In this document: positions 1,731 through 27,773 of the stretch, in pieces
Layout of the letters: every line of letters begins with the position of its first letter
Position numbering within the stretch: the first letter of the stretch is position 1
Assembly: GCA_030167145.1 (NCBI GenBank)
Contig: CP126532.1
Coordinates: forward strand, 2,910,001 to 2,942,000
Reading direction: 5' to 3'
DNA length: 32,000 nucleotides
From: Ktedonobacterales bacterium
Lineage (GTDB): Bacteria; Chloroflexota; Ktedonobacteria; Ktedonobacterales; JADMIN01
Made by a program: the position numbers and the translations under genes
Notes under the pieces: generated by a model
The model's input: only the letters and a program-made list of their open reading frames with translations
Database searches by the model: none
Told to the model about the DNA's origin: nothing

Positions 1731-1768
1731 GGTGGGGGAAGGCTCCCCCGCGCGAAGGGAAACCGTTG

Positions 1769-2404
1769 ATGGCGATTCGCGTGCTGATTGTGGACGACCA
1801 TAGCGTGGTGCGTGAAGGGCTGCGCATGTTCATTGCCCGCGACCCGGACCTGGAGGTGGTGGGGGAGGCGGCGGGCGGGGCCGAAGCAATTCAGCAAGCC
1901 AGACTCTTGCGGCCCAATGTGGTGGTCATGGATCTGCTCATGCCCGCCCCAGATGGGATAGCCGCGACCCGGACGATTCGTAGCGAGTTGCCGGAGACCG
2001 AGGTGATCGCGCTCACCAGCGTGCTGGAGAGCACTTCGATGATCGAGGCCATACGTGCCGGAGCGATTGGCTATCTGCTGAAGGATGCTCATGCCGACGA
2101 ACTGCGCACAGCCATCAAGGGTGCCGCCGCGGGGCAGGTGCAACTCTCTCCCCAGGCGTCCGCCTATTTGCTGGGCGCGGTCCGTACGCCAGACCATGCG
2201 GAACCTCTGACCCCGCGTGAATTGGACGTGCTTCGCCTGCTTGCGCGTGGCCACTCGAATAAGGAAATCGCCCACATGTTGCATCTGGTCGAGGAGACCG
2301 TCAAATCCCATGTGAGCCATATTCTGGGCAAGCTTGGTGTCCAGAGCCGTACCCAAGCCGCTCTCGCGGCGATCCGGTTGGGAATCGTCTCTCCCCAACC
2401 GTGA
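1769..2404 (+). CDS. response regulator, NarL/FixJ (LuxR-type HTH) family
   Basis: Receiver motifs (LIVDDH, VVVMDLLMP, ALTS, YLLKD) plus a C-terminal LuxR HTH (LTPRELDVLRLLARGHSNKEIA..L..S..TVKSHVSHILGKLGV.SRTQA). ATG at 1769; the track start at 1766 is TTG. SD GAAGGGA lies 7 nt upstream. Confidence 0.92.
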   Translation: MAIRVLIVDDHSVVREGLRMFIARDPDLEVVGEAAGGAEAIQQARLLRPNVVVMDLLMPAPDGIAATRTIRSELPETEVIALTSVLESTSMIEAIRAGAIGYLLKDAHADELRTAIKGAAAGQVQLSPQASAYLLGAVRTPDHAEPLTPRELDVLRLLARGHSNKEIAHMLHLVEETVKSHVSHILGKLGVQSRTQAALAAIRLGIVSPQP

Positions 2405-2426
2405 GCGCGAAAGGAGATGCTGGACC

Positions 2427-3524
2427 ATGCATACATCACGCCAGGATGGCAATGCGAAGTGGGGCCAACGTCTCATCGTGTGGCCGGCGCGAACAGCGCC
2501 GCCATGGCGGCGCATCATCATTGATAGCATGCTGGCTATAGCAGGTGTCACCCTGGTGACGCTCATCATCGCTACCGCGCACCTCTACCCGCGCCTGCCG
2601 AGCAGTGTGTTGTGCTATCTGCTGGTGATCGTCATGCTGGCTAGTCTGCTGGGAAACTATGCGGCCATTCTGGCATCGCTGCTGGCAAGTTTCGCCTTTG
2701 ACTTCTTCCTGGCGCCTTTGCCTGAACCATACATGTTTGCTGAGCTGGACGACGTGCTTGATCCAGCGATTTTTCTGGCAACAGCCATCGTGACAGGGCA
2801 ATTAACCGCAGTGTTGCGCAAACATACTGAGCAGGCCAGGCGGAGAGAGCGCGAAACGCGCCTCCTCGCCGAGCAAGCGCAAGAACTCGCCGCGCTCCAC
2901 GAGCGCCAGCGCATTGCTCGCGAGCTACACGATTCAGTCTCGCAGGCGCTGTATGGCATCAGCCTGGGCGCGCAGACCGCCCGTGATGCCCTCAACCGTG
3001 ACCCAGCGGATGTGGCCACCCCGCTCGACTATGTAATCGCGCTGGCCGAGGCGGGCATGGCCGACATGCGCGCCCTGATCTTTGAGCTGCGCCCCGAATC
3101 GCTCGCCAGCGAAGGGATCGTCGCGGCCCTGAACAAACAGGTGGCGGTCTTGCGTACCCATTACAAACTGGAGGTTGACGCCCAACTCGGCGAGGAGCCG
3201 AACATCGCGCTGGAGTGTAAACAGGCGCTCTATCGTATCGCCCAGGAGACGCTGCACAACATCGTCAAGCATGCCTGCGCGCACACCGTTCTCCTGCGCC
3301 TGAGCATGCGCGATGACGCGCTGCTCTTAGAAGTCTGCGACGATGGCAAAGGCTTTGACCCCACCGAGCCGTTCCCTGGCCATCTCGGCATCCGTTCGAT
3401 ACAAGAGCGCACCGCCTCGCTGGATGGCGTCTGCTCTATCGAGAGCGCTCCAGCGCAGGGGACGTGTCTGCGCGTACATATTCCCGCTCACAGTGTGGCT
3501 GGGCTGAGCGGCAAGCACATCTGA
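2427..3524 (+). CDS. sensor histidine kinase: DUF4118-like membrane domain, HisKA_3 and HATPase_c
   Basis: ATG at 2427 follows AAGGAGA (2411-2417). KdpD-type DUF4118-like TM bundle, H-box ERQRIARELHDSVSQAL, N-box HNIVKHA, and G-boxes DDGKGF / GHLGIRSIQER. Adjacent to the NarL-type regulator. Confidence 0.9.
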   Translation: MHTSRQDGNAKWGQRLIVWPARTAPPWRRIIIDSMLAIAGVTLVTLIIATAHLYPRLPSSVLCYLLVIVMLASLLGNYAAILASLLASFAFDFFLAPLPEPYMFAELDDVLDPAIFLATAIVTGQLTAVLRKHTEQARRRERETRLLAEQAQELAALHERQRIARELHDSVSQALYGISLGAQTARDALNRDPADVATPLDYVIALAEAGMADMRALIFELRPESLASEGIVAALNKQVAVLRTHYKLEVDAQLGEEPNIALECKQALYRIAQETLHNIVKHACAHTVLLRLSMRDDALLLEVCDDGKGFDPTEPFPGHLGIRSIQERTASLDGVCSIESAPAQGTCLRVHIPAHSVAGLSGKHI

Positions 3525-4025
3525 GCGACGGCCCCTTCTCTCCCCCTTTCGAGTGAGATCCCCATCCCCCCAAGGTGTGAACCAGAATCCACCCAATGCG
3601 GGTAGCCTTGTGCCCGTGTGCTCTCTATGCTTGTGAAGAATCCCACGAGACCATGATTGAGCATCGGAGTAGCGTTCGCGGCCCGGCTGGGCCGCGCATG
3701 AAGCACGCGAGTTGAGCGTTGTGTCCCCTGTCGCGCGAGTGCAATGCACGCTGAACGCATGCTGGTAGTGATGTGCTCCATTTGAAGCCAGGAAGCTTTT
3801 AGGAGTCGTACCTCACGCCCATGGCGTCCACGGATGAAGACCGAAATGGTGGGTGGCGGCGCCGTATCTGGGCGTGGGGCCTTACGAGAGCAATCCCCCG
3901 ATTGAAACCGGGGTGCTTGACCAATCTTCCAAACGATGCCGCGCACGCGCCAGCGAGCGGGATGCGCAGTCAGACCCTCTACGCGCGGGCACGCAAGGGC
4001 ACAAGGCGAGGGGAGGAGTCACACG

Positions 4026-7000
4026 ATGATACGTTGGATTGTTGGCTGGAGCCTGAAATTCCGCTTCTTCGTGGTGGCGCTGGCGCTGGCGACGCTGCTC
4101 GTCGGCATCGTGCAGGTGCGCGCCATGCCAGTGGATGCCCTCCCAGAGTTCGCGCCGCCCTACGTGGAAGTGCAGACCGAAGCGCTCGGCCTTTCCGCCT
4201 CTGAAGTGGAGGAGTTGATTACCCTCAACCTGGAGGAACTGCTCAACGGGACACCGTGGCTGGACTCAATCCGCTCCACCTCGGTGCCTGGGCTTTCCTC
4301 CATCATCCTCTATTTCCAACCCGGAACCGATGTCATCCGCGCACGGCAATTAATAGCCGAGCGCCTGAGTCTGGCGTATACGCTGCCCAATGTGGCGAAA
4401 CCGCCGGTCATCCTCCAGCCGGTGTCGGCGACGAGCCGGGTGATGATGGTGGGGCTGTCCTCAAAGACGGTCTCGCCCATCGAGATGTCGGTGCTGACCC
4501 GCTGGAACATCCGGCCCGCACTGCTCTCGGTGCCGGGCGTGGCAAATGTCGCGATTTGGGGCATGCGCGACCGCCAGTTGCAGGTGCAGGTTGACCCCGC
4601 GAAGCTGGCCGCCCACAACGTTACGCTCGATCAAATCGTCGCCACCACCGGCAATGCCTTGTGGGTATCGCAACTCAGCTTCCTGAACGCCTCCACACCG
4701 GGCAGCGGCGGCTGGATTGATACCCCACAGCAGCGGCTCGAAGTCCGGCATATCCTACCCATCTCCACACCAGACGATCTGGCGCAGGTGATCGTCGAAG
4801 ACACGCAGTTACGCCTGGGCGATGTGGTCACGGTCGTGGAAGATCATCAGCCGCTGATTGGCGACGACATCCAAAGCAGCGACGCTGGCCCATTGCTCGT
4901 CATCGAGAAATTCCCCGGCGCGAACCCCGTGGACGTGACACGGGGCGTCGAAGACAAGTTAGCGGAGCTAGAGCCTGGCCTGAGCGGCATCAAGATGGAT
5001 ACGCGCATCTTCCGGCAGGCGAACTTCGTCGAGATGGCCCTGAGCAACTTCGCCAATGCGCTGCTCATCGGCTTGCTGTTGCTGGTGCTGGCGCTGTTCT
5101 TCTTGTTCTACCACTGGCGCGCCGCGTTGATCAGCCTGGTGGCGATACCGCTTTCGGTGGTGGCGGCGGGGCTGGTTCTGGCCCTGCGCGGGACAACCAT
5201 CAACGTGATGATCCTGGCAGGGCTGGTGATCGCCATCGCGGTGCTGGTGGACGACGCCATCGTGGATGTGGAGAACATCATGCGGCGGCTGCGGCAGCAG
5301 CGCGCGGCGGGCAGCGACAGGTCTACCGCCAGCATCATCCTCGAAGCCATGCAGGAGACGCGCGGGGTGATGCTCTATGCGACGCTGATCGTGCTACTGC
5401 CTCTGGCGCCGATCATCTTCCTGGGCGGCGTGACGGGCGCTTTCTTCCAGCCGCTCGCGCTCACCTACGCGCTGGCGCTGCTGACCTCACTGATGGTGGC
5501 GCTGACCCTGACGCCCGCGCTCTGCCTGATTCTGTTCGCCAAATCGCCGCTCGAAAGCTATGAGTCGCCACCGCTGCGCTGGCTCCAGCGGGGCTACTAC
5601 GCGGTCATCCGGCGGATAATCCACATACCGCGTCCAGGTATCCTTGCCTCCGGCGTCATTGCGGTTGGCGTGCTGGCGCTGGCGGGCCTCGCGGTATTGC
5701 CTTTCCTCGGCAAGCCGCTGCTGCCAGCGTTCAAGGAGCCGGACATCATCGTCCAGTGGGAGGGAGCGCCCGGTACGTCCTATCCAGAAATGGCCCGCAT
5801 TACCACTCGTGTCAGTCGCGAACTGCGCGCCATCCCAGGAGTGCATAACGTGGGTGCGCATATCGGGCGCGCGATACTGGGCGATCAGATCGTGGATGTC
5901 AACTCCGCACAACTTGCGGTCAGCGTGGAGCCGGGCACGAACTACGATGCGACAGTGCGGGCAGTCGAGCGCGTGGTCAAGGGCTATCCGGGCCTGTTCC
6001 GCGAGGTGCAAACCTACCTGGACGAGCGCACCAAACAGGTGTTGACGGGATCGAGCGACGATATCGTGGTACGCATCTATGGCCCCGATCTGGGCGTCTT
6101 GCGCGGCAAAGCGGCGGAGGTGCAGCACGCCCTTGCCCAGATTGACGGCGCCTCCGGGGTGCATGCGGAATTGCAGACGGAGGTGCCGCAGGTGCAGGTC
6201 AGGGTGAAGCTCGCCGAAGCGCAACGCTATGGCCTCAAGCCAGGCGATGTACGCCGGTCGGCGGCCACGCTGGTGGCGGGCATCGAAGCCGGGAGCCTCT
6301 TCGAGGAGCAGAAGGTATTCGATGTGGTAGTGAAGGGCACTGCCCCAACATACAGCAGCCTGACGAGTATTCGCGAGATGCTGATAGACACACCCGACGG
6401 CGGCCATGTGCGCCTGGGGGATGTCGCCGATGTGAGCATCCTGCCATCCCCGAACTTGATCCGCCACCAGACCGTCTCGCGGCGCATTGACGTGGGGCTG
6501 AATGTCCGCGGGCGCGACACGGGCGCGGTGGTCCGCGAGATCAACGAGCGACTGAGCCGTATCACGTTCCCGCTGGAATATCGCGCGCAAGTGCTCGGCG
6601 AATACGCCGAACGGCAAGCGGCGCAGGGGCGTTTGTTCGCCTTTGGCCTCGCGGCGGCGATCATCGTCTTCCTGTTGTTGCAGGCAGCCTTCGGGAGCTG
6701 GCGGCTGGCGACGCTGATCTTCTTCACGCTGCCCTTCGCCCTGGTAGGCGGTGTGCTGGCCGCGTTTGCCATTGGCGGCGTCATCTCGCTGGCCGCGGTG
6801 CTGGGCTTGCTAGCGGTGTTCGCCATTGCCGCCCGCAACGGCATGCTGCTGATTAACCACTATCAGCATCTCGAACGCGAAGAAGGGATGACATTTGGCC
6901 CCGAATTGGTGATGCGCGGCGCGCGTGAGCGGCTAGGACCGATCCTGATAACGGCGCTGGCGGCGAGCCTCGCGCTGGCGCCGCTGGCTATCGCCGGCAA

Positions 7001-7235
7001 CAGCCCCGGATACGAGATCGCCTTCCCGATGGCGGTGGTGATCCTGGGCGGGCTGATTACTTCGACGGCGCTCAACCTGTTTATTGTCCCCATCCTCTAT
7101 TTGCGCTTCGGGCGTGGCGCATCCACACCCGGCACAGCGGGACGATGGAGCCGCTTCAGGAGACGTGAAGCGTCCGCGCCTTCTGGCCCGCCAGCGGACG
7201 CCCCCGAAATGCCGCTTTCCGAGCCAGCCACGTGA
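4026..7235 (+). CDS. efflux RND transporter permease subunit, CzcA/CusA-like (paralog 1)
   Basis: ATG at 4026 follows GGGGAGGAG. N-terminus MIRWIVGWSLKFRF, TM4 motif VLVDDAIVDVEN, and a C-terminal region NGMLLINHYQHLEREEG...RERLGPILITALA...GGLITSTALNLFIVP typical of heavy-metal-efflux RND pumps. About 1069 aa with 12-TM architecture. Confidence 0.92.
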   Translation: MIRWIVGWSLKFRFFVVALALATLLVGIVQVRAMPVDALPEFAPPYVEVQTEALGLSASEVEELITLNLEELLNGTPWLDSIRSTSVPGLSSIILYFQPGTDVIRARQLIAERLSLAYTLPNVAKPPVILQPVSATSRVMMVGLSSKTVSPIEMSVLTRWNIRPALLSVPGVANVAIWGMRDRQLQVQVDPAKLAAHNVTLDQIVATTGNALWVSQLSFLNASTPGSGGWIDTPQQRLEVRHILPISTPDDLAQVIVEDTQLRLGDVVTVVEDHQPLIGDDIQSSDAGPLLVIEKFPGANPVDVTRGVEDKLAELEPGLSGIKMDTRIFRQANFVEMALSNFANALLIGLLLLVLALFFLFYHWRAALISLVAIPLSVVAAGLVLALRGTTINVMILAGLVIAIAVLVDDAIVDVENIMRRLRQQRAAGSDRSTASIILEAMQETRGVMLYATLIVLLPLAPIIFLGGVTGAFFQPLALTYALALLTSLMVALTLTPALCLILFAKSPLESYESPPLRWLQRGYYAVIRRIIHIPRPGILASGVIAVGVLALAGLAVLPFLGKPLLPAFKEPDIIVQWEGAPGTSYPEMARITTRVSRELRAIPGVHNVGAHIGRAILGDQIVDVNSAQLAVSVEPGTNYDATVRAVERVVKGYPGLFREVQTYLDERTKQVLTGSSDDIVVRIYGPDLGVLRGKAAEVQHALAQIDGASGVHAELQTEVPQVQVRVKLAEAQRYGLKPGDVRRSAATLVAGIEAGSLFEEQKVFDVVVKGTAPTYSSLTSIREMLIDTPDGGHVRLGDVADVSILPSPNLIRHQTVSRRIDVGLNVRGRDTGAVVREINERLSRITFPLEYRAQVLGEYAERQAAQGRLFAFGLAAAIIVFLLLQAAFGSWRLATLIFFTLPFALVGGVLAAFAIGGVISLAAVLGLLAVFAIAARNGMLLINHYQHLEREEGMTFGPELVMRGARERLGPILITALAASLALAPLAIAGNSPGYEIAFPMAVVILGGLITSTALNLFIVPILYLRFGRGASTPGTAGRWSRFRRREASAPSGPPADAPEMPLSEPAT

Positions 7236-7298: not shown

Positions 7299-7754
7299 AT
7301 GCGACACTTTGGACACCCTGTTCGCTGGGCGATACTGCTGCTGTTCATCATCGCCGGCCTGCAACTTGTAGCGTGTGGGCAGCCCTCCACCACAGCCAGC
7401 GGGGGCGAAGAACCAGCCAAGGTCGATCCGGTCGCGGGGACGGATCTCAGCCGCGTGATCGTGACCGAAGAAGCGGCGAAACGGCTCGACATCCAGACGG
7501 CCACTGTGCATGACGCGCAGATGCGCGGGACACTGCGCTTGGTGGCGCCCTACTCCGCCGTGCTCTACGACATGAATGGCGCAACCTGGGTCTATACCAA
7601 TCCTTCGCCGCTCACCTTCGTGCGCGAGAGCATCACGGTTGAGTATATCGAAGGCGATCTGGCGGTGCTTGCCGCAGGCCCACCCGCAGGAACCGTCGTG
7701 GTGACGGTCGCGGGGCCTGAACTCTACGGTATCGAGGCTGGGGTTGGCGAATGA
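7299..7754 (+). CDS. small lipoprotein; candidate minimal periplasmic adaptor (MFP membrane-proximal-domain-only)
   Basis: ATG follows GAGGAGGA. Signal peptide with lipobox LVAC-G. The mature part carries an MFP-like N-terminal strand (VIVTEEAAKRLDIQTATV) fused directly to an MFP-like C-terminal module (LRLVAPYSAVLYDMNGATWVYT..FVRESITVEY..GDLAVLAAGPPAGTVVVTVAGPELY). Its stop lies 21 nt before the start of the next RND gene. Confidence 0.75.
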   Translation: MRHFGHPVRWAILLLFIIAGLQLVACGQPSTTASGGEEPAKVDPVAGTDLSRVIVTEEAAKRLDIQTATVHDAQMRGTLRLVAPYSAVLYDMNGATWVYTNPSPLTFVRESITVEYIEGDLAVLAAGPPAGTVVVTVAGPELYGIEAGVGE

Positions 7755-7775
7755 TGGCGCAAGGAGGTGGTAGCC

Positions 7776-10700
7776 ATGATGCGCTGGATCGTTGGGTCAA
7801 GCTTACGTTTTCGTTTCCTGGTGGTGGCCATGGGCGCCGCGATGATGCTCATCGGCATTGCGCAGTTGCGCACCGTGCCGATAGATGTCTTTCCGGAGTT
7901 CGCCCCGCCACTGGTCGAGATTCAGACCGAAGCGCCGGGGATGTCCACCTCGGAGGTAGAATCGCTGATTACCATTCCCCTGGAGGACGCGCTTAGCAGC
8001 ACCCCGCAGCTTGATACCATCCGCTCGAAGTCGGTTCCTGGCTTGTCGGCCATTACGCTGATCTTCAAGTCGGGAACCGACATCCTGAACGCCCGCCAGC
8101 TCGTGAGTGAGCGCGTGTCGGTAGCGACTCGTTCGTTGCCGACGTGGGCAGGGCTGCCCTGGATGCTCCAGCCGCTCTCCGCGACCAGCCGTGTCGTGCA
8201 GATTGGGATCACCTCAGATAAATATTCGCCGATGGATCTCTCGATGATTACCTACTGGACGATCCGCTGGCGCTTGATGGGCGTGCCGGGTGTGGCGAAT
8301 GTCGTCCTCTGGGGCGACCGCTTCAAGCAGTTGCAGGTGCAGGTGGATCCCCACAAGCTGGGGCAATATCATGTTTCGCTGGATGAAGCCCAGGAGGTCA
8401 CTTCAGAAGCCCTGGACTACGGGTTGCTGCGGTATACGAGCAACTCCCGAACCCGTGTCGGTGGCTTCGTGGACACCGCCAATCAACGGCTCGGTATTCA
8501 GCATGTCTTGCCGGTGGTCACCCCGGAGGATCTGGCGAAGGTGCCCGTGCATGACAAAACCAAGAGCGATGGCACCCCGCTGACGCTCGGCGACCTGGGC
8601 CATGTGGTGTGGGACCACCAGCCGCTCATTGGCGATGGTGTTATCAACGATAAGCAGGGTCTGTTGCTCATCGTTGAGAAGTTCCCCTGGGCCAACTCGC
8701 TGGATGTGACGCGCGGAGTAGACGCGGCGCTCAATGAGATGCGCCCCGGCCTGGCCGGCATCCAGATTGACTCGACCATCTTCCGGCAGGCGAGCTTCAT
8801 CGAGATGGCCATTGGCAACCTCGCCCATGCGCTGCTCATCTCGTGTCTGCTGGTGGTGCTGGTGCTCGGCTCCTTCCTCTTCGAATGGCGCACCGCGCTG
8901 ATCAGCATGGTGGCGATACCGCTGTCGCTGGTGATGGCGGGGCTGATCTTAGCGATGCGCGGGGCAACCATCAATACGATGATATTAGCGGGGCTGGTGA
9001 TCGCCGTCGGGGGGGTTGTGGACGACGCCATCATTGATGTGGAGAACATCGTGCGGCGTCTGCGCCAGGCCCGCCGCGAGGGCAGTACGCGATCCACGGC
9101 CAGCATCATCCTTGAGGCATCGCTGGAAGTGCGCAGCGCCATTGTGTACGCGGTGCTGATTGATGTAACCGTGCTTTTGCCGATCTTCTTCGTGGGCGGC
9201 GTGACAGGCGCGTTCTTCCAGCCACTTGCCCTGTCGTATGCGCTGGCGCTGTTGGCCTCGATGGTGGTGGCGCTGACGGTGACGCCCGCGCTCTGCCTGA
9301 TGCTGCTGGCCAAAGCGCCGCTGGAACGCCGCGAGTCGCCGCTGCTGCGCTGGCTGCAGCGGAGCTACAACCCGCTCGTCGGGCGGATCATCCGCAGTCC
9401 CCGCCCAGCCTTCGCGATGGTTACGCTATTCATGCTGGCTGGGTTGCTGATATTCCCATTTCTTGGCGAGTCGCTATTCCCCGCGTTCAAGGAGCGCGAC
9501 TTCCTGATGCACTGGGTGAGCACACCGGGCACATCCCACGCCGAGGCGGTGCGCATCACCACGCAGGCCAGCCGCGAGCTACGCGCCATCCCTGGGGTGC
9601 GCAACTTTGGCTCGCATATCGGGCGCGCCATCGCGGGGGAGGAAGTCCACAGCATGAATTTTGCGGAGAACTGGATCAGCGTGGACCCCGCCGTTGACTA
9701 TGACAAAACGGTGACGGCTATCGAGGAGGTGGTCAACGGCTATCCCGGCCTCTTCCGCGATGTGCAGACCTATCTGAATGAGCGAATTGACGAGGTGTTG
9801 GTGGGGACGAGCGACGATATTGTCGTGCGCATCTTCGGCCCCGACCTGGAAACCCTGCGCAGCAAGGCGGCGGAGGTGAAGGCTACGCTTGAGAAGGTTC
9901 CGGGAACCTCCGAGGTGCATACCGAGCTGCAGGTGGATGTGCCCCATGTGCAGGTCAGCGTGAACATGGCCAATGCCCAACGCTATGGCCTCAAGCCAGG
10001 CGATATACGCCGGGCGGCGGCGGCGCTGGTGGCGGGCACCGAGGTCAGCGACATTCACCGCGATGGCAAGGTCTATGATGTGATGGTGGTAGGCACGCCT
10101 GAAACCTACAACAGCCTGACCAATATCCGCGAGATGTTGATTGACACGCCCGACGGCGGTCAGGTGCGGCTGAGCGATGTGGCCGATGTGAGCATCCTGC
10201 CCACCCCGAACCTGATCGAACGCGAGCACAACTCGCGGCGCATTGACGTGGGCATCAAGGTGACGGGGCGCGATCTGGGCGCGGTGGTGCATGACGTCAA
10301 CGCGCGGCTGCGCGGCGTCAGCTTCCCGCTGGAATATCACGCGCAGGTGCTGGGCGAGTATGCCGAGCGGCAAGAAGCGCAGGGGCGCCTGTTCGCCTTC
10401 GGTCTCGCCGCCGCTATCGGCGTCTTCCTGCTGTTGCAGGCGGCCTTCGGGAGCTGGCGCCTGGCGACGCTGGCCTTCTTCACGCTGCCCTCCGCGCTGG
10501 TGGGCGGCATACTGGCCGCGTTCGCTACCGGCGGGATCATCTCGCTCGGATCGCTGGTCGGCTTCTTCACGGTCTTCGGGATTGCCGCCCGCAACGGCAT
10601 CATGCTGATCAACCACTATCAGCATCTCGAACGTGAAGAAGGGATGGCGTTTGGTCCCGAACTGGTGGTGCGCGGGGCGCGCGAGCGGCTGGGGCCGATC

Positions 10701-10931
10701 CTGATGACGGCGCTGGCGGCGGGCCTGGCGCTGGTGCCGCTGGTGATCTCCGGCGACATCCCCGGCCACGAGATCGAACATCCGATGGCGATTGTCATCC
10801 TGGGCGGGCTGGTCACCTCGACCATACTCAACCTGTTCGTCGTGCCGTCCCTGTATCTGCGCTTCGGCAAGAAAGACCCGAATCGGCGCTTCTTCCTGTT
10901 CCGCAATCGGCCCGCTCCGGCCCAGTCGTGA
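7776..10931 (+). CDS. efflux RND transporter permease subunit, CzcA/CusA-like (paralog 2)
   Basis: ATG at 7776 lies 8 nt after AAGGAGG (7761-7767); the track start at 7767 is a GTG inside that SD. By eye it is roughly 60-65% identical to paralog 1 across the full length. TM4 motif VVDDAIIDVEN and C-terminal NGIMLINHYQHLEREEG. Confidence 0.92.
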   Translation: MMRWIVGSSLRFRFLVVAMGAAMMLIGIAQLRTVPIDVFPEFAPPLVEIQTEAPGMSTSEVESLITIPLEDALSSTPQLDTIRSKSVPGLSAITLIFKSGTDILNARQLVSERVSVATRSLPTWAGLPWMLQPLSATSRVVQIGITSDKYSPMDLSMITYWTIRWRLMGVPGVANVVLWGDRFKQLQVQVDPHKLGQYHVSLDEAQEVTSEALDYGLLRYTSNSRTRVGGFVDTANQRLGIQHVLPVVTPEDLAKVPVHDKTKSDGTPLTLGDLGHVVWDHQPLIGDGVINDKQGLLLIVEKFPWANSLDVTRGVDAALNEMRPGLAGIQIDSTIFRQASFIEMAIGNLAHALLISCLLVVLVLGSFLFEWRTALISMVAIPLSLVMAGLILAMRGATINTMILAGLVIAVGGVVDDAIIDVENIVRRLRQARREGSTRSTASIILEASLEVRSAIVYAVLIDVTVLLPIFFVGGVTGAFFQPLALSYALALLASMVVALTVTPALCLMLLAKAPLERRESPLLRWLQRSYNPLVGRIIRSPRPAFAMVTLFMLAGLLIFPFLGESLFPAFKERDFLMHWVSTPGTSHAEAVRITTQASRELRAIPGVRNFGSHIGRAIAGEEVHSMNFAENWISVDPAVDYDKTVTAIEEVVNGYPGLFRDVQTYLNERIDEVLVGTSDDIVVRIFGPDLETLRSKAAEVKATLEKVPGTSEVHTELQVDVPHVQVSVNMANAQRYGLKPGDIRRAAAALVAGTEVSDIHRDGKVYDVMVVGTPETYNSLTNIREMLIDTPDGGQVRLSDVADVSILPTPNLIEREHNSRRIDVGIKVTGRDLGAVVHDVNARLRGVSFPLEYHAQVLGEYAERQEAQGRLFAFGLAAAIGVFLLLQAAFGSWRLATLAFFTLPSALVGGILAAFATGGIISLGSLVGFFTVFGIAARNGIMLINHYQHLEREEGMAFGPELVVRGARERLGPILMTALAAGLALVPLVISGDIPGHEIEHPMAIVILGGLVTSTILNLFVVPSLYLRFGKKDPNRRFFLFRNRPAPAQS

Positions 10932-12365: not shown

Positions 12366-12682
12366 CGACGCCCGCGGCAGATCTCGCATAGTTCAATATT
12401 CTGCCCCTGAAAATCGTTCCCAGATGGGCGCGGATGGCGTGTGAAGGAAGCGACGCCTATCTGTGCTGTTGCCCAATTCTTGCGAGTAGTTGACGGCATA
12501 ACGCAAATGTCGCACAGTGTAGCTGTGCCAATCATGTAGGCAACACCCTCTGAATGCGTTCCGGCGAACAGTGAGGTGCATACCCAGCGCGAACCAGACC
12601 GAGATCGAGCGCATGGGACATGCGGAAAGATGAGTGTGGCGCCGCCGAGACACATGGAGCGTTCTGGCGAGGCAGGCGTACA

Positions 12683-14923
12683 ATGAAATCACCCAAGAAT
12701 GGCACGAAGACTCCGGCTCACCAGGAGACATCCACGACAACTGGGCGAACCAATGGCCACCAGCGTCGCCGGGGTTTCCGGAGGCTGGGCCTCAATCAGC
12801 GCTTTCTGCCGATCCTGATCGTCGTCTCGCTCATTAGCTCGTTCGCTATCGCCTCGCTGGCCTACATCGCCATCCGCACCGCCGCCATCAACAGCGCGCA
12901 GGATCGCGCGCGACAGGATGTGCGCGTAGCGCAAGCGTTCTTAGAGGGTCAGGGCGACACGCTGGCGATCAGCAATGGGCAGATGGTGGTCATCAGCCAG
13001 GGCAAATCTACGCTGACACTCAATGGTGATACAACCCAGGTGGACCGTATGGCGGCGCTGGTGGCCGATGCGACCATCTATCAGCTTGAGGGAGAGAATC
13101 TGGTCGCTATCTCGTCCAGTGTGCATACTCCGAATGGTTCGCGTTTACTTGGGTATGCGCTCGGCGGCCCGCCATACACCGCGTTGCGTCAGGGCAACGC
13201 CTATACCGGTGTGGTCAGCTTGCAGGGCACGCAATACGTCGCCTCATTCGAGCCACTCCACGACGCCAACGGCGCGTTGATCGGCGCGGTGAGTACCGCG
13301 ACGCCGCTCGATACCGTGCTTGCACCCACCACGCAGATTGGGATTATCTTGCTGTTCGCGAGTCTGTTGCTGGCGCTGGTGCTCTCGCTGGTTGGGTTCT
13401 GGGTGTTCGATTCGCTCTCCAAACGCGTGCTGGCCTCGCTCGACACCCAGCTTAACGCCATCGCGGATGGCGCTGTACAGCTCGGTGGCGAAGCGCATGC
13501 GAACGCGCGGCGATTGCGACGGCAGGAACGCCTCACACGCCAGATTGGCGAGCAAGTCTATCAGCTCGATACGCTGGCCCGCGCCATGGAACACGGGCAT
13601 GCCGCGCTGCAAAACTCGGCGGGCGAGATCTGGGCGGAGATGTCGCAGCCAGGACTTGCGCCTGATCCGCAGCGGGCGCTGCAATGGGCAAAACAGTCGG
13701 TGATTATCTCGGCGCGCGTGGGCACACAGGCGGAGCAGGCCCGCGACCTGTGCTATCAACTGACGAATCTGCTCAATCATGTCGTCGCCGAAGGCAATGC
13801 TATGACCAGCAGTAGCCGCGACATAGACGCCGAGGCGACAGATCTGCACACGGCAGTGAACGGCATCGAAGCGGCGCTCGGCGAGCGGTTCGTCCCGCGC
13901 GACGCCCTCGCGGGCGCGCCAGAGTCCCGCTACGATGCGGGCGAGACCCCCGCCGCCATGTATCCGCCGCGCGCGCCGCAGCCACAGTCACAGCCATCAC
14001 CCCAGATGGAGCCGCGTGGTATACCTGCCACGCCATCACAGCCAGGAGGCCCGCAGCAAGCCATGCCTCGCAATGCCGGGCAGATGCCGCAGCAACCATC
14101 TCAACCACCCCAACGCGGCCCTGTCAGCCCCTACTTCATCCAGCCACCGCAATCGCCCCAACAAGCGGGCTGGGGTGGCGCCGCCCAACCTGCTCAGCCT
14201 GCCCAACCGCGCACACCACCCCAGGAGCAGCGTTCACAACCATCTGGACAGTATCCAGCCGCCAATCAGTACCCTGGCGGGCAACGTCCCGACGCCAATC
14301 AATATCCTAGCGGGCAATATCCCGCCGTTGGCGGACAGTATGCGCCAGAACGCTATCCGGCGCAGCAGTATCCTCCCAGCGGGCAGTATCCGGCCGTCGG
14401 CGGACAATCGCAGCAGCGGACTGCAGTCCCTGGTGGCGCGGGTGAACCACCCGCACATGGTCAGCCGCCGCAACCACCACAATATCAGCCGCAGCCACAG
14501 CGGCAGACTGGCGCGCCTGAGGCAGGCAGTCGCGGCTACACCAGCGACGACCTACAATGGCGCGCCGCTGGCGGATGGCCGCCCGACGAAGCAGACCAAA
14601 GCACCCAGCAATACACGCCAACCCGGCGCGATACTCCTCCGCTCACGCCAGCCGCGCCCGAACAAGCCCAAGCGCCGCAGCCACCATACGCGCCAGCATA
14701 CCCGCCGCAACAATCGTATGCGCCCGAACAAGCGTATATGCCAGAGCAGCAACAGCCGCCGTCATGGCAGGCGCAGATGCCCGCCCCTAGCGTGCCGCCA
14801 GCGATGCCACCATTCAATGATCTTGGCCTGCCCAACCTGCCCAGCGTCAGTGGCAAAGACTGGCGCGGCACTGGCGTCCACGGCGCTGCTGGCGAGCCGG
14901 AAGACTTCTCCGATGAGCGCTAG
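12683..14923 (+). CDS. membrane sensor-like protein: TM, Cache-like extracytoplasmic domain, TM, HAMP-like/helical region, and a ~330-aa Pro/Gln/Tyr-rich tail
   Basis: Two TM helices (ILIVVSLISSFAIASLAYIAI and IGIILLFASLLLALVLSLVGFWV) flank about 170 aa resembling single-Cache sensors (ATIYQLEG.NLVAISSSV..P.G.RLLGY.L......AL..G..Y.G.V.L.G..YVA.FEPL.D..G..IGAV). A HAMP-like segment follows, then a QYP/PQ low-complexity region to the stop. The start could also be the ATG at 12620. Confidence 0.75.
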   Translation: MKSPKNGTKTPAHQETSTTTGRTNGHQRRRGFRRLGLNQRFLPILIVVSLISSFAIASLAYIAIRTAAINSAQDRARQDVRVAQAFLEGQGDTLAISNGQMVVISQGKSTLTLNGDTTQVDRMAALVADATIYQLEGENLVAISSSVHTPNGSRLLGYALGGPPYTALRQGNAYTGVVSLQGTQYVASFEPLHDANGALIGAVSTATPLDTVLAPTTQIGIILLFASLLLALVLSLVGFWVFDSLSKRVLASLDTQLNAIADGAVQLGGEAHANARRLRRQERLTRQIGEQVYQLDTLARAMEHGHAALQNSAGEIWAEMSQPGLAPDPQRALQWAKQSVIISARVGTQAEQARDLCYQLTNLLNHVVAEGNAMTSSSRDIDAEATDLHTAVNGIEAALGERFVPRDALAGAPESRYDAGETPAAMYPPRAPQPQSQPSPQMEPRGIPATPSQPGGPQQAMPRNAGQMPQQPSQPPQRGPVSPYFIQPPQSPQQAGWGGAAQPAQPAQPRTPPQEQRSQPSGQYPAANQYPGGQRPDANQYPSGQYPAVGGQYAPERYPAQQYPPSGQYPAVGGQSQQRTAVPGGAGEPPAHGQPPQPPQYQPQPQRQTGAPEAGSRGYTSDDLQWRAAGGWPPDEADQSTQQYTPTRRDTPPLTPAAPEQAQAPQPPYAPAYPPQQSYAPEQAYMPEQQQPPSWQAQMPAPSVPPAMPPFNDLGLPNLPSVSGKDWRGTGVHGAAGEPEDFSDER

Positions 14924-25198: not shown

Positions 25199-25223
25199 CA
25201 CCCATACCCAGGGGGTATGGGTG
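25199..25223. promoter_or_regulatory. perfect 11-bp-arm palindrome resembling a CsoR-type copper-repressor operator
   Basis: CACCCATACCC AGG GGGTATGGGTG. It lies 8 nt downstream of an extended -10-like TGCTATATT (25183-25191) and about 110 nt upstream of the ATPase ATG. Confidence 0.5.
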
Positions 25224-25331
25224 TCGAGGAAGAGATATGGCACCAGTTGTGCGCGGTTTGTGCTACACCGCAGCGGCGCTTGTGGGAGGGTGCGAGCGCG
25301 CGCAAACCAGGGGAAAGGATGGGCGAGCAGT

Positions 25332-27773
25332 ATGATTACAATCACGACGCCGGTGCAGGGACTCAACTTCGCTGGCTGCGCTCGCGCCATCGAGAAGCGG
25401 CTCAGCACGGTTCCGGGCATCGCCAGCGTAGAGGCGAGCTATGTGACGCAGACGGCGACGATCACCTATGACGAGACGCGGCTCGGCGAGGAGCAGGTGC
25501 GCGATCTGGTCAAGGACTGCGGCTTTGGCTGCGGCGAGCCGTTGGAAGCAGCGCAACCTATGATGGCGGGACATGCCGCAATGGCAGGACACACGATGGC
25601 AGAACATGCTGCGACGGCCACGGCTGAGGCAGCGCTGCCTGCGATGGCGCATGCGATGGATCACAGGGACCATGCGGACCACGGGGACCATGCGGACCAC
25701 GGGAACCATGCGGACCATGCGGACCATGGCGGTATGGGTCACGGCATGCACGACATGAGCGATCCGGCGATGGCGCGGGCGATGGAAGCCGACATGCGCC
25801 GCCGCTTCTTCGTCGCGCTGATTCTCACCATTCCGGTGATCCTCTACTCGCCGCTGGGCACGAATCTCTTGCGTATCCATCTGCCCACGCCGTTCGGCAT
25901 CAATGTCAACTGGGTGTTGTTCGTGCTGACCACGCCTATCGTCTGGTGGGCGGGCTGGATTTTTCATGCGGGGGCATGGCGGGCGCTGCGTAACCGCACG
26001 CTGGATATGAACGTGCTGGTGAGCCTGGGCGTGCTGGTCGCCTATTTCTTCAGCGTCTTCGTGACGCTCTTCGGCCACGATGTGGAAACCAGCTACGACG
26101 CCGCCGCGATGCTGGTGACCTTCGTGCTCTTCGGCCACTGGATGGAGATGCGCAGCCGTCGCGGCTCCTCGGATGCGCTCAACGCGCTGCTGCGGCTGGC
26201 GCCGAGCCAGGCGAACATCGTTGACGCCGATGGGCAGATCCGCACCGTGCCGGTGGAGCAGGTGCATGTGGGCGATACGCTGCTGCTGCGCCCCGGCGAG
26301 AAGACGCCGGTGGATGGCGTCGTCACCGAGGGCGCGAGCGCGGTGGACGAGAGCATGATTACCGGCGAGAGCCTGCCGGTGAGCAAGAAGCCAGGGGACG
26401 AGGTGATCGGCGGCACGGTGAATGGTTCAGGGTCGCTGCGCTTCACCGCGACGAAGGTCGGCAGCGAGACGGCGCTGGCGCAGATCGTTGAACTGGTGCG
26501 GACGGCGCAGAACTCCAAAGCGCCCGCGCAGCGGCTGGCGGACCGCGCGGCGGAATGGCTGGTGCTGCTGGCGGTGGGCGCGGGACTGCTGACCTTTACC
26601 GTCTGGTACTTCGTGATCGGTCAATCGGCGCTCTTCGCGCTGACACTGGCGGTGGCGGCGGTGGTAATCGCTTGCCCCGACGCGCTGGGCCTGGCGACGC
26701 CGACGGCTGTCGCCGTGGGTACGGGCATCGGCGCGCGCAAGGGCATCCTCATCAAGAACGCGACGGCGCTGGAGCAGACCTCGCGCATCCAGGCGATCAT
26801 CTTCGACAAGACGGGCACGCTGACCGAGGGCAAGCCAGCCGTAACCGACATCGTGGTCTTCGCGGCGGGCGAGACGGCGGGGATGGATGACGCGGCGCTG
26901 TTGCGCTACGCGGCGGCGGCGGAGACCGATTCGGAGCATCCGCTGGCGCGCACGATTGTCGAAGAAGCGCAGGCACGCCAGCTCGATCCGCTGCCGTACA
27001 GCGACTTCGCGGCGATTGCGGGCGGCGGGGTGCAGGCGGTGGTGGATGGGCGCACGGTGCGGATCGGCACGCCCAAATTGCTCGCGGACCACGGCATTGC
27101 GTTGACGGAGGCCGAACGCGAGCGGCTGACGGCCCTGCAAGCCGAGGGCAAAACGGTGATGGTGGTGGGCATGGACGCCCATGCCGCCGGGCTGATCGCC
27201 GTCGCCGACCGCATTCGCTCCACCTCGCGCGAGGCGATCAGCGCGCTGCAAGCGCAGGGGATACAGGTGGCGATGCTGACCGGCGACAATACGCACACGG
27301 CGGAGGCGGTCGGGCGGACCCTCGGCATCAGCCGCGTCTTCGCGGAGGTGCTGCCCGCCGATAAAGCGCGCTACGTGAAGCAACTGCAAGCCGAAGGGCT
27401 GTTCACGGCGATGGTGGGCGACGGTGTGAACGATGCGCCCGCGCTGGCGCAGGCGGACCTGGGCATTGCCATCGGCGCGGGCACGGGGGTCGCCATCGAG
27501 ACAGCGCAGGTGGTGCTGATGCGCAGCGATCCGCTGGATGTGCTGGCGGCGATACGGCTCTCGCAGGCGACAGTGCGCAAGATGAAGCAGAATCTCGTCT
27601 GGGCCGCCGCGTACAACCTGATCGCCATCCCCATCGCGGCGGGGGTGCTGTATCCGCTGGGCATTCTGCTCAGCCCGGCGGTGAGCGCGCTGGCGATGAG
27701 CGCGTCTTCGATCACGGTGGCCACGAACGCGGTGCTGCTCAAGCGCGTGGAGCCGCATCTGCGCGAGGGGTAG
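25332..27773 (+). CDS. heavy-metal (probably copper) translocating P1B-type ATPase with atypical metal-binding features
   Basis: TGES (ITGESLP), DKTGTLT, SEHPLA and [10 protein letters not shown] motifs are CPD ([13 protein letters not shown]), YN ([10 protein letters not shown]) and MSASS. It has an N-terminal HMA-like fold and a His/Met-rich stretch. I trimmed the start from 25221, which lies inside the palindrome, to the ATG at 25332. Confidence 0.9.
25659..25730 (+). repeat. in-frame short tandem repeats encoding (D/N)HA-DHG units
   Basis: GACCATGCGGACCACGGG occurs twice (25668-25703), followed by three 9-nt units (AACCATGCG, GACCATGCG, GACCATGGC). Translation: [24 protein letters not shown]. 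Confidence 0.85.

Follow-up and report, generated by a model that had tools for sequence, protein, structure and literature searches.

A lipoprotein encoded between two RND permease genes of a Ktedonobacterales bacterium is an adaptor homolog reduced to its membrane-proximal domain

We identified the 151-residue product of a gene located between two permease genes of the resistance-nodulation-division (RND) type as a homolog of the membrane fusion proteins (MFPs, also called periplasmic adaptor proteins, PAPs) that has been reduced to the membrane-proximal (MP) domain, with loss of the beta-barrel and lipoyl domains and of the alpha-helical hairpin. The gene (7299-7754, forward strand) lies in a stretch of 32,000 nucleotides from a Ktedonobacterales bacterium of the phylum Chloroflexota (contig CP126532.1, positions 2,910,001 to 2,942,000), hereafter called the window. 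The analysis recovered its fold identity, its homology to adaptors, its lipobox, its operon linkage to two intact RND paralogs (RND1 and RND2) and, in the window and around related loci, the lack of linked genes for outer-membrane factors (OMFs). The best explanation for the whole is probably that this mini-adaptor is a lipid-anchored protein consisting of the MP domain only, which would dock on and serve the RND1/RND2 pump without a trans-envelope bridge. A sequence-only reading of the window had already described a lipoprotein with an LVAC lipobox between two RND pumps, in which both termini of the MP domain are present and the inserted domains are missing. Our translation matches the protein of that reading exactly, both flanking genes are full-length, and the MP-only architecture is borne out by structure searches, by a series of longer relatives and by a clean deletion between profile alignments.

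The protein starts with a signal peptide, MRHFGHPVRWAILLLFIIAGLQLVAC, which has the lipobox L-V-A-C at its end (residues 1-26, closing with LQLVAC; 7299..7376, + strand). Lipidation is predicted at Cys26, with which the mature protein would begin. Together with Leu21 and Leu23 this residue is kept in at least 90% of 45 aligned homologs, and a lipobox-like motif is found in 111 of 119 relatives; signal peptide and lipobox would provide the membrane anchoring typical of an MFP, with lipidation predicted. A low-complexity tether, GQPSTTASGGEEP (residues 27-39; 7377..7415, +), connects the lipid anchor to the folded domain; its length and sequence differ across the alignment, and in the AlphaFold2 (AF2) model the predicted local distance difference test score (pLDDT) is below 50 at residues 27-34. 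Secondary structure in this model and profile alignment (hhalign) place the N-terminal half of the MP module at residues 40-75 (7416..7523, +), which form a beta-hairpin, a short helix 'EEAAKRL' and a strand 'DIQTATV' (strands at 40-44, 51-55, 66-69 and 71-75, helix at 57-63). The strand 'DIQTATV' is the counterpart of the N-terminal MP strand of adaptors, and the junction between Met75 and Arg76 is the point where longer relatives hold their barrel (and lipoyl) domains. The C-terminal half, residues 76-146 (7524..7736, +), is a beta-roll, 'VAPYSAVLYDMNGATWVYT...FVRESITVEY...GDLAVLAAGPPAGTVVVTVAGPELY', modelled at pLDDT 96-98 and recognised by Foldseek and by profile matches.

The most conserved parts of the family are precisely the N-terminal 'RLDIQTATV' strand and the C-terminal 'VAPYSAVLYD..G.TWVYT..FVR' block. 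Judged from the alignments, conservation of both MP blocks across the 255 relatives of a first search and the 2,607 of an exhaustive one is far beyond chance. Twelve columns of the family alignment are invariant, and in the 45-homolog alignment the invariant residues include R62, P84, Y85, Y90, G94, T96, W97 and R109; this conserved patch is a candidate interface. Source records annotate the relatives as 'hypothetical protein'. A Pfam scan of the 151-residue protein gave no match at E<=1, and an NCBIfam scan gave only faint matches to the signal peptide (LptM, 'invert_tail').

The AF2 model, built on the alignment of the 45 homologs, has a mean pLDDT of 86 and exceeds 94 over residues 40-145. 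In a Foldseek search against the PDB its top 12 matches are all RND adaptors, aligned at their MP domain with a probability of ~1.0. The best match is 5a4g, an engineered 180-residue SilB construct composed of the N-terminal metal site and the MP domain, and further matches include CusB (3ne5), TMexC, ZneB (3lnn), AcrA and MexA, with BesA at rank 16. Local alignments of the C-terminal half were obtained with ZneB (3lnn_A; root-mean-square deviation 1.2 Å over 59 columns, 25% identity), CusB (3ne5_B), MexA (6iol_N) and BesA (4kkt). No rival fold family appears among the Foldseek matches, where alphavirus-capsid and ATP-synthase entries are interspersed at probabilities of 0.3 or below; an unrelated fold, which the sequence-only reading had named as contrary to its proposal, was not found. 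Model, Foldseek and profile matches agree on the two elements that make up an MP domain, the N-terminal strand and the C-terminal ~70 residues. The model contains no long helices and hence no alpha-helical hairpin, only five residues separate the N- and C-terminal MP segments where the beta-barrel would be, and the lipoyl (barrel-sandwich hybrid) domain is absent from the protein by Pfam scan and hhalign. At the level of sequence, a short-form profile searched against PDB sequences gave sub-significant matches to TriAB (6vej_P, 611-682; 0.022) and to 4l8j_A (254-318; 0.08), both of which fall on C-terminal MP regions, and the N-terminal half aligns to CusB residues 89-100, 'TQNLGVKTATVT', with a non-significant score. 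The top match of this profile search, the designed Kelch-like repeat protein 8pjx, was rejected, as it reflects a repeated short motif ('YD.e.etW').

The connection to the adaptors is carried by longer relatives of the mini-adaptor. Searching the short-form profile exhaustively over representatives of 50%-identity clusters yielded 2,607 representatives at E<=1e-3, among them 751 at E<=1e-30, with identities of 45-65% across phyla and intact ORFs (open reading frames). Among the best 150 representatives, 93 are at most 200 residues long, 50 have 201-300 residues and a few have 320-336. Proteins of ~250 and ~330 residues match the short profile at E values of ~1e-45 to 1e-52, each through an N-terminal and a separate C-terminal stretch. 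The ~330-residue forms exceed the Pfam gathering cutoffs of HlyD_3 (39-48 bits, cutoff 22.2) and HlyD_D23 (42-46 bits, cutoff 30), as seen for P0142, P0156, P0189, P0216 and L073:950-1936. Only in these forms is a lipoyl domain seen, through HlyD_D23 and a sub-threshold Biotin_lipoyl_2 match; given that only ~15 residues lie between the two lipoyl halves, they are hairpin-less adaptors made of lipoyl, barrel and MP domains. Their profile reaches MexJ (2e-6), MexA, CusB and ZneB among PDB sequences and extends through the barrel into the MP region. The ~250-residue form is modelled as beta-barrel plus MP domain (pLDDT 81), and a structure search with this model recovers 36 adaptor chains at E<=3e-3, CusB being first at 4e-8. 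When the short and long alignments are compared by hhalign (probability 100%, E=2.2e-62), a single internal gap of ~180 columns opens exactly between 'DIQTATVHDAQM' and 'RGTLRLVAPYSAV'. The protein of the window is therefore an adaptor minus everything between the two MP half-segments. Its family, with more than 2,600 sequence clusters and no name in Pfam or NCBIfam, does not amount to a new type of system; it is a genuine sub-architecture within the adaptors, large and so far without annotation.

In a tree built by neighbour joining from 265 sequences over the 112 columns of the shared MP core, the three length classes interleave, and length class changes ~37 times by parsimony as compared with ~66 times when labels are shuffled. 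This suggests repeated loss or gain of domains instead of a single event, as far as a noisy tree of 112 columns can be read. Other variations on the scaffold were also observed. P0138 (417 residues), P0137 (525) and P0130 (500) carry an extra domain of ~200-270 residues with the motif 'DNFDRST.IDN.WLPL.PGTQWVYEG' and no Pfam match, either at the usual site of the barrel or appended C-terminally, so that the MP scaffold seems to tolerate unrelated inserts. In P0121 (220 residues) the MP module is tandemly duplicated within one lipoprotein, with the core 'IIPYSAL.YDP.G' occurring twice.

Both neighbours of the mini-adaptor gene encode full-length RND permeases that match ACR_tran. RND1 is a 1,099-residue ORF (3936..7235, +; E=3.3e-199) and RND2 a 1,054-residue ORF (7767..10931, +; E=4.7e-217). 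The mini-adaptor gene starts 63 bp after RND1 and its stop codon lies 12 bp before RND2, spacings from which the three genes look like one operon. The two permeases share 63% identity with one another, as against 26-28% with CusA and 23% with AcrB; they show no large deletions, and their porter and docking domains are therefore complete. They keep the AcrB-type proton relay (D407, D408, N941, R971 and T978, with K940 replaced by Arg) and in transmembrane helix 4 an AcrB-like VDDAIVDVEN (VDDAIVVVEN in AcrB). Both have an extra Asp four residues past the DD pair (AcrB position 412), and compared with AcrB both lack 13 residues after residue 664. Read from its longest-ORF start, RND1 gains a 30-residue Arg-rich extension, MPRTRQRAGCAVRPSTRGHARAQGEGRSHT (3936-4025); the true start is likely Met31 at 4026 (MIRWIVG, compare MMRWIVG in RND2).

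Linkage to RND genes holds well outside the window. The cassette has the order RND1-type permease, optionally an ATP-binding cassette (ABC) ATPase with ABC-2 permeases, adaptor and RND2-type permease. An RND gene follows the adaptor gene directly in 80 of 88 evaluable loci and precedes it directly in 52 of 85, the upstream permease being of the RND1 type across related loci. The RND1-mini-RND2 order is kept across Chloroflexota, Actinomycetota, Gemmatimonadota, Bacteroidota and other phyla, and the sequence-only reading's expectation of RND-linked homologs is thereby confirmed. Short, medium and long forms share the same operon slot, which in L005 is occupied by a 248-residue form. That two distinct paralogs are constantly paired suggests a heteromeric pump, possibly of the MdtB2C kind. 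In MdtABC one adaptor serves two RND paralogs that form the MdtB2C heterotrimer. The operon of the window resembles it in having two paralogous permease genes and one adaptor-family gene, and differs in that MdtA is a full four-domain adaptor whose pump uses TolC, whereas here the adaptor gene lies between the paralogs and encodes an MP domain only. A Lewinellaceae metagenome-assembled genome (MAG) holds two copies of the RND1-mini-RND2 arrangement (L035:6746-13597 and L035:15674-20450).

As the sequence-only reading had stated, no OMF gene is present in the window: a Pfam scan of the ORFs of at least 400 residues detected neither an OMF (OEP) nor a full-length adaptor. A search of the loci with CusC by phmmer likewise found no OMF, and because of its low sensitivity it was replaced by batch Pfam scans of 152 flank ORFs of 330-600 residues from ~80 loci, in two batches of 76. 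The OEP and HlyD families were each found in at most 1 of 76 flank ORFs per batch. An OMF partner is thus missing from the window and practically so from the flanks; a single Planctomycetota locus showed a separate CusB-like operon.

How such a protein could serve a pump may be outlined from what is published on canonical adaptors. Contact 'boxes' between adaptor and RND permease occur only in the barrel and MP domains (PMC6975555), mutations in the MP domain interfere with recognition of the pump and with efflux activity (PMC4446572), and it has been suggested in reviews that MP domains sense the state of the transporter and help to present cargo (PMC4446572; PMC13328181). From these contact sites and mutant effects we infer that the lipoprotein, anchored on the outer side of the cytoplasmic membrane, would dock on the periplasmic porter domain of the RND1/RND2 pump, possibly an MdtB2C-like heterotrimer. 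It would retain the roles of the MP domain that face the transporter: recognising the pump, stabilising or assembling it, and activating it or gating the substrate. An adaptor made of the MP domain alone could neither reach or open an outer-membrane channel nor form a hexameric duct. Given that barrel, lipoyl and hairpin domains are lacking, with no duct and no TolC-like opening, the substrate would be released at the outer face of the membrane. The pump would act as an inner-membrane-only extruder that discharges into the wall or periplasmic space, and in diderm hosts the substrate may leave across the outer membrane through a porin encoded in the operon. The neighbouring LuxR-type two-component system probably controls expression.

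Several points weigh against this explanation. The Foldseek E-values of the mini-adaptor model are modest (3e-3 at best), as is to be expected of a domain of ~100 residues. A hidden Markov model of the short forms aligns with the right regions of E. coli AcrA and CusB at negligible scores, and none of the curated MFP models of Pfam or NCBIfam matches the 151-residue sequence directly at a significant level. The HlyD-type profiles that the sequence-only reading had proposed as a check also fail to match the protein directly. Homology to the MFPs is hence established only transitively and by structure: no direct match at E<=1, relatives at E ~1e-50 that exceed the Pfam cutoffs, and a short-long hhalign E of 2e-62. 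Moreover, canonical pumps receive about half of their RND contacts from the beta-barrel, which the mini-adaptor does not have; it may therefore bind only weakly, or depend for binding on the N-terminal hairpin peculiar to its family. In 16 of 85 loci the adaptor gene has an ABC-2 permease gene directly upstream, making an ABC partner conceivable. Additionally, the absence of OMF and full-length-adaptor genes applies to the window and the locus flanks, so that a full-length adaptor and an OMF encoded elsewhere in the 5-Mb genome may serve the pumps, and RND binding, heteromer formation, activation and lipidation are all predicted.

One alternative concerns the cause of the domain loss. The sequence-only reading had suggested that a reduced adaptor would fit a monoderm or atypical envelope; as a general cause, by which adaptation to a monoderm envelope specifically left the hairpin, lipoyl and barrel domains without a use and led to their loss, this seems unlikely. 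For the host of the window the argument does fit, since Chloroflexota are increasingly regarded as monoderm (bioRxiv 10.1101/2025.08.19.671072), which would leave no outer membrane to reach, and the window lacks an OMF gene. Many family members indeed come from Chloroflexota and Actinomycetota. In a reference-genome scan that returned 211 relatives, host taxonomy was taken from the best 80: the Chloroflexota among them belong to Anaerolineae, Chloroflexia, Thermomicrobiales, Limnocylindria, Caldilineaceae and Roseiflexaceae, and the Actinomycetota include two cultured Micromonospora strains. However, Gemmatimonadota are very prominent in the same set, and short forms of the same length in the same slot also occur in Bacteroidota (Lewinellaceae and Ignavibacteriaceae), Acidobacteriota (Vicinamibacterales), Planctomycetota and Eisenbacteria MAGs. 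Gemmatimonadota and Bacteroidota are diderm, and a monoderm envelope is therefore not the general cause. Within Chloroflexota itself, an Anaerolineaceae MAG contig (L073, 950-13525) has a cassette with a 328-residue form beside a cassette with a 149-residue form, and the interleaving of length classes on the family tree also speaks against this explanation. Furthermore, known Gram-positive adaptors keep their hairpins, contrary to what this explanation would lead one to expect (PMC4446572). The family thus qualifies the simple expectation that domain loss tracks outer-membrane loss; of the earlier suggestion, the fit to the Chloroflexota host stands and the generality does not.

The operons of these diderm-type hosts contain porin genes, which also tell against the monoderm explanation. 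A porin gene of the Porin_5/Porin_O_P type is present in 14 Gemmatimonadota-type loci (for example L006:13756-14838, L049:13697-14773, L080:13580-14659 and L016:3889-5082); in six of the 14 it follows RND2 immediately, and in the others it lies further downstream. This recurrent porin occupies the end of the operon where a gene for a TolC-type OMF would be expected. Its presence hints that in these hosts the pump is not coupled to export through the outer membrane. OprO/P-like porins are anion-selective, and this might hint at the class of substrate.

A second alternative would have the protein bind substrate in the periplasm, or act there as a chaperone, and bring cargo to the pump instead of being a structural or activating subunit, in the manner of CusF or of the N-terminus of CusB or SilB, and we regard it as quite improbable. 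Its attraction is that the best structural match is the SilB construct of metal site and MP domain, and that the best NCBIfam model for both permeases is CusA/CzcA (TIGR00914; 500 bits for RND1 and 584 for RND2). In addition, a P1B-type heavy-metal ATPase (HMA, E1-E2_ATPase and hydrolase domains; 25221-27773) is encoded 14 kb downstream of the RND cassette, and the conserved aromatic patch of the mini-adaptor (Y85, Y90, W97, Y99) could bind a ligand. Yet the scores of the permeases fall below the model's cutoff of 701, and the methionine triad of CusA (M573/M623/M672) is absent from both, replaced by Q/S/Q and H/F/E; without a metal-relay motif they fall outside the heavy-metal efflux (HME) RND group of CusA and CzcA. 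In the mini-adaptor no Met, His or Cys is conserved across the homolog alignment and no invariant column is a metal ligand; mature short forms average ~1 Met, 1.7 His and 0.1 Cys, and the disordered tether has no Met/His motifs. A metal pump was rejected on the missing triad and the lack of conserved metal ligands in the small protein, and the residues at these sites indicate that the substrate is not Cu(I) or Ag(I) carried by a CusA-type methionine relay. The fold, moreover, is not the OB fold of CusF: Foldseek matches the MP domain of adaptors, and a CusF-type metallochaperone was rejected on this ground and on the unconserved Met, His and Cys. Two further identities were discarded, namely MmpS (no PF05423 at E<=1, and a lipoprotein rather than a protein with a transmembrane anchor) and a YceK-like protein, a label given by JGI to one relative.

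Alternatively, the protein could be the adaptor of the co-occurring ABC-2 transporter, similar to MacA, with its adjacency to RND genes being secondary. The 16 loci with an ABC-2 permease immediately upstream would favour this, as would the recurrence of ABC ATPase and permease genes in the operons and the fact that ABC-associated adaptors such as MacA also have MP domains (PMC4446572). An ABC ATPase and one to three ABC-2 permeases are often found between RND1 and the mini-adaptor gene or after RND2 (L006:6751-9952, L013:7526-9978, L017:7351-9961, L008:14000-16643), which suggests a larger multi-transporter system. We nonetheless hold it to be very improbable that the ABC transporter is the primary partner: the window and most Chloroflexota and Actinomycetota cassettes keep the mini-adaptor gene without any ABC gene, the RND gene directly downstream in 80 of 88 loci is there with or without them, and where ABC genes are inserted between RND1 and the mini-adaptor gene, the latter still abuts RND2. 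Finally, although the protein is far shorter than any characterised adaptor and recognised by no curated family, the idea of a decaying, functionless remnant of a full-length adaptor gene is effectively refuted by conservation, that is by the more than 2,600 cluster representatives with intact ORFs and 45-65% identity across phyla, the conserved lipobox and 12 invariant columns, the confident prediction of a standalone fold, the predominance of short forms (93 of the top 150 representatives) and the independent folding of the isolated SilB MP domain in solution (PDB 5a4g).

The MP-only adaptor proposed here can be placed among known systems. The MP domain of CusB, ZneB and SilB (PDB 3ne5, 3lnn, 5a4g) has the same fold, an N-terminal strand and a C-terminal beta-roll, and the same pattern, '..A.RLgI.TA.V' followed by 'vP.sAv....G..wVyv......F..r.V.......v.v..GL..G..VV..G...L', and the SilB construct of N-terminus and MP domain demonstrates that such a module folds autonomously. 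These adaptors have four domains, with barrel, lipoyl and hairpin nested inside the MP domain, whereas the mini-adaptor nests nothing; it also has no N-terminal Met/His metal site and no OMF partner gene, and it possesses an extra, family-specific N-terminal beta-hairpin (residues 40-55). The reviews of PAPs from 2015, 2021 and 2026 give a four-domain plan, from which, between them, they list BesA as deviating by its missing hairpin and EmrA by its missing MP domain (PMC4446572; PMC13328181). BesA of Borrelia burgdorferi (PDB 4kks/4kkt), a natural case of domain loss and a structural match of the mini and medium forms, shares its hairpin-less plan of lipoyl, barrel and MP domains with the ~330-residue members. 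However, it retains lipoyl and barrel domains and works with the OMF BesC, while the mini-adaptor has neither these domains nor a linked OMF gene. EmrA, an adaptor of the major facilitator superfamily (PDB 4tko), represents the opposite extreme, with everything except the MP domain, and its reduction shows that adaptor architecture is modular (PMC4446572; PMC13328181). AcrZ, YajC and mycobacterial MmpS are comparable as small membrane-anchored partners of RND pumps that do not bridge to the outer membrane, but they are unrelated in fold and sequence, being helical transmembrane peptides or MmpS-type domains and not beta-rolls derived from adaptors. The sequence-only reading knew of no characterised mini-adaptor, and we likewise found no natural MP-only adaptor described in the full-text literature searched, the three PAP reviews included (most subscription journals lie outside this coverage).

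The usual account of adaptors is that they connect a pump in the inner membrane to a TolC-like channel. A second role, sensing or activation of the transporter through the MP domain, is hard to isolate, as removal of the other domains destroys the tripartite assembly. In the series of ~330-, ~250- and ~150-residue forms, nature apparently made the deletion that isolates the MP domain, and made it repeatedly. More speculatively, and with less confidence than in the local explanation, we propose that MP-only adaptors may mark a widespread and unrecognised class of two-paralog RND pumps without a trans-envelope duct, in monoderm and diderm bacteria alike and paired with a porin in diderm Gemmatimonadota, in which the MP domain alone might be the necessary and sufficient activating or assembly subunit. 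If true, this would be a natural separation of function, with the transporter-facing role of the adaptor autonomous from channel bridging. The family offers a tractable system for what the MP domain does alone, given that cultured Micromonospora carry it. In Chloroflexota, Actinomycetota and Gemmatimonadota the mini-adaptor could be used to spot RND pumps that operate with no outer-membrane partner, and naming the family would fill a gap in annotation.

Upstream of the cassette, Pfam identifies two regulatory genes in the window: 1766-2404 (+) encodes a response regulator of the LuxR type, and ORF 2334-3524 (+) encodes a histidine kinase with HisKA_3 and DUF4118. The ORF start at 2334 overlaps the response regulator, and the kinase probably starts near 2424. 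This two-component system probably regulates the mini-adaptor operon; a response regulator and HisKA_3 pair also precedes or adjoins the RND1-mini-RND2 cassette in L001/L002, L006/L007 and L008. Downstream, a 767-residue protein (12620-14923) has a recognised Cache_3-Cache_2 sensor (residues ~90-235), followed by ~500 C-terminal residues that match no Pfam family at E<=1.

Two other proteins recur around related cassettes. A protein of ~279 residues without a Pfam match ('p279') is found in the cassette of more than 50 loci, usually right after RND2 or before RND1 (for example L008:13134-13973, L010:7837-8892 and L014:13811-14725), and is not part of the minimal cassette of the window. Large DUF5916 proteins of 750-960 residues repeatedly flank the cassette in Gemmatimonadota and Eisenbacteria loci (L003:4062-6323(-), L008:3501-6377, L021:3031-5913, L029, L041, L044) and may be another envelope component.

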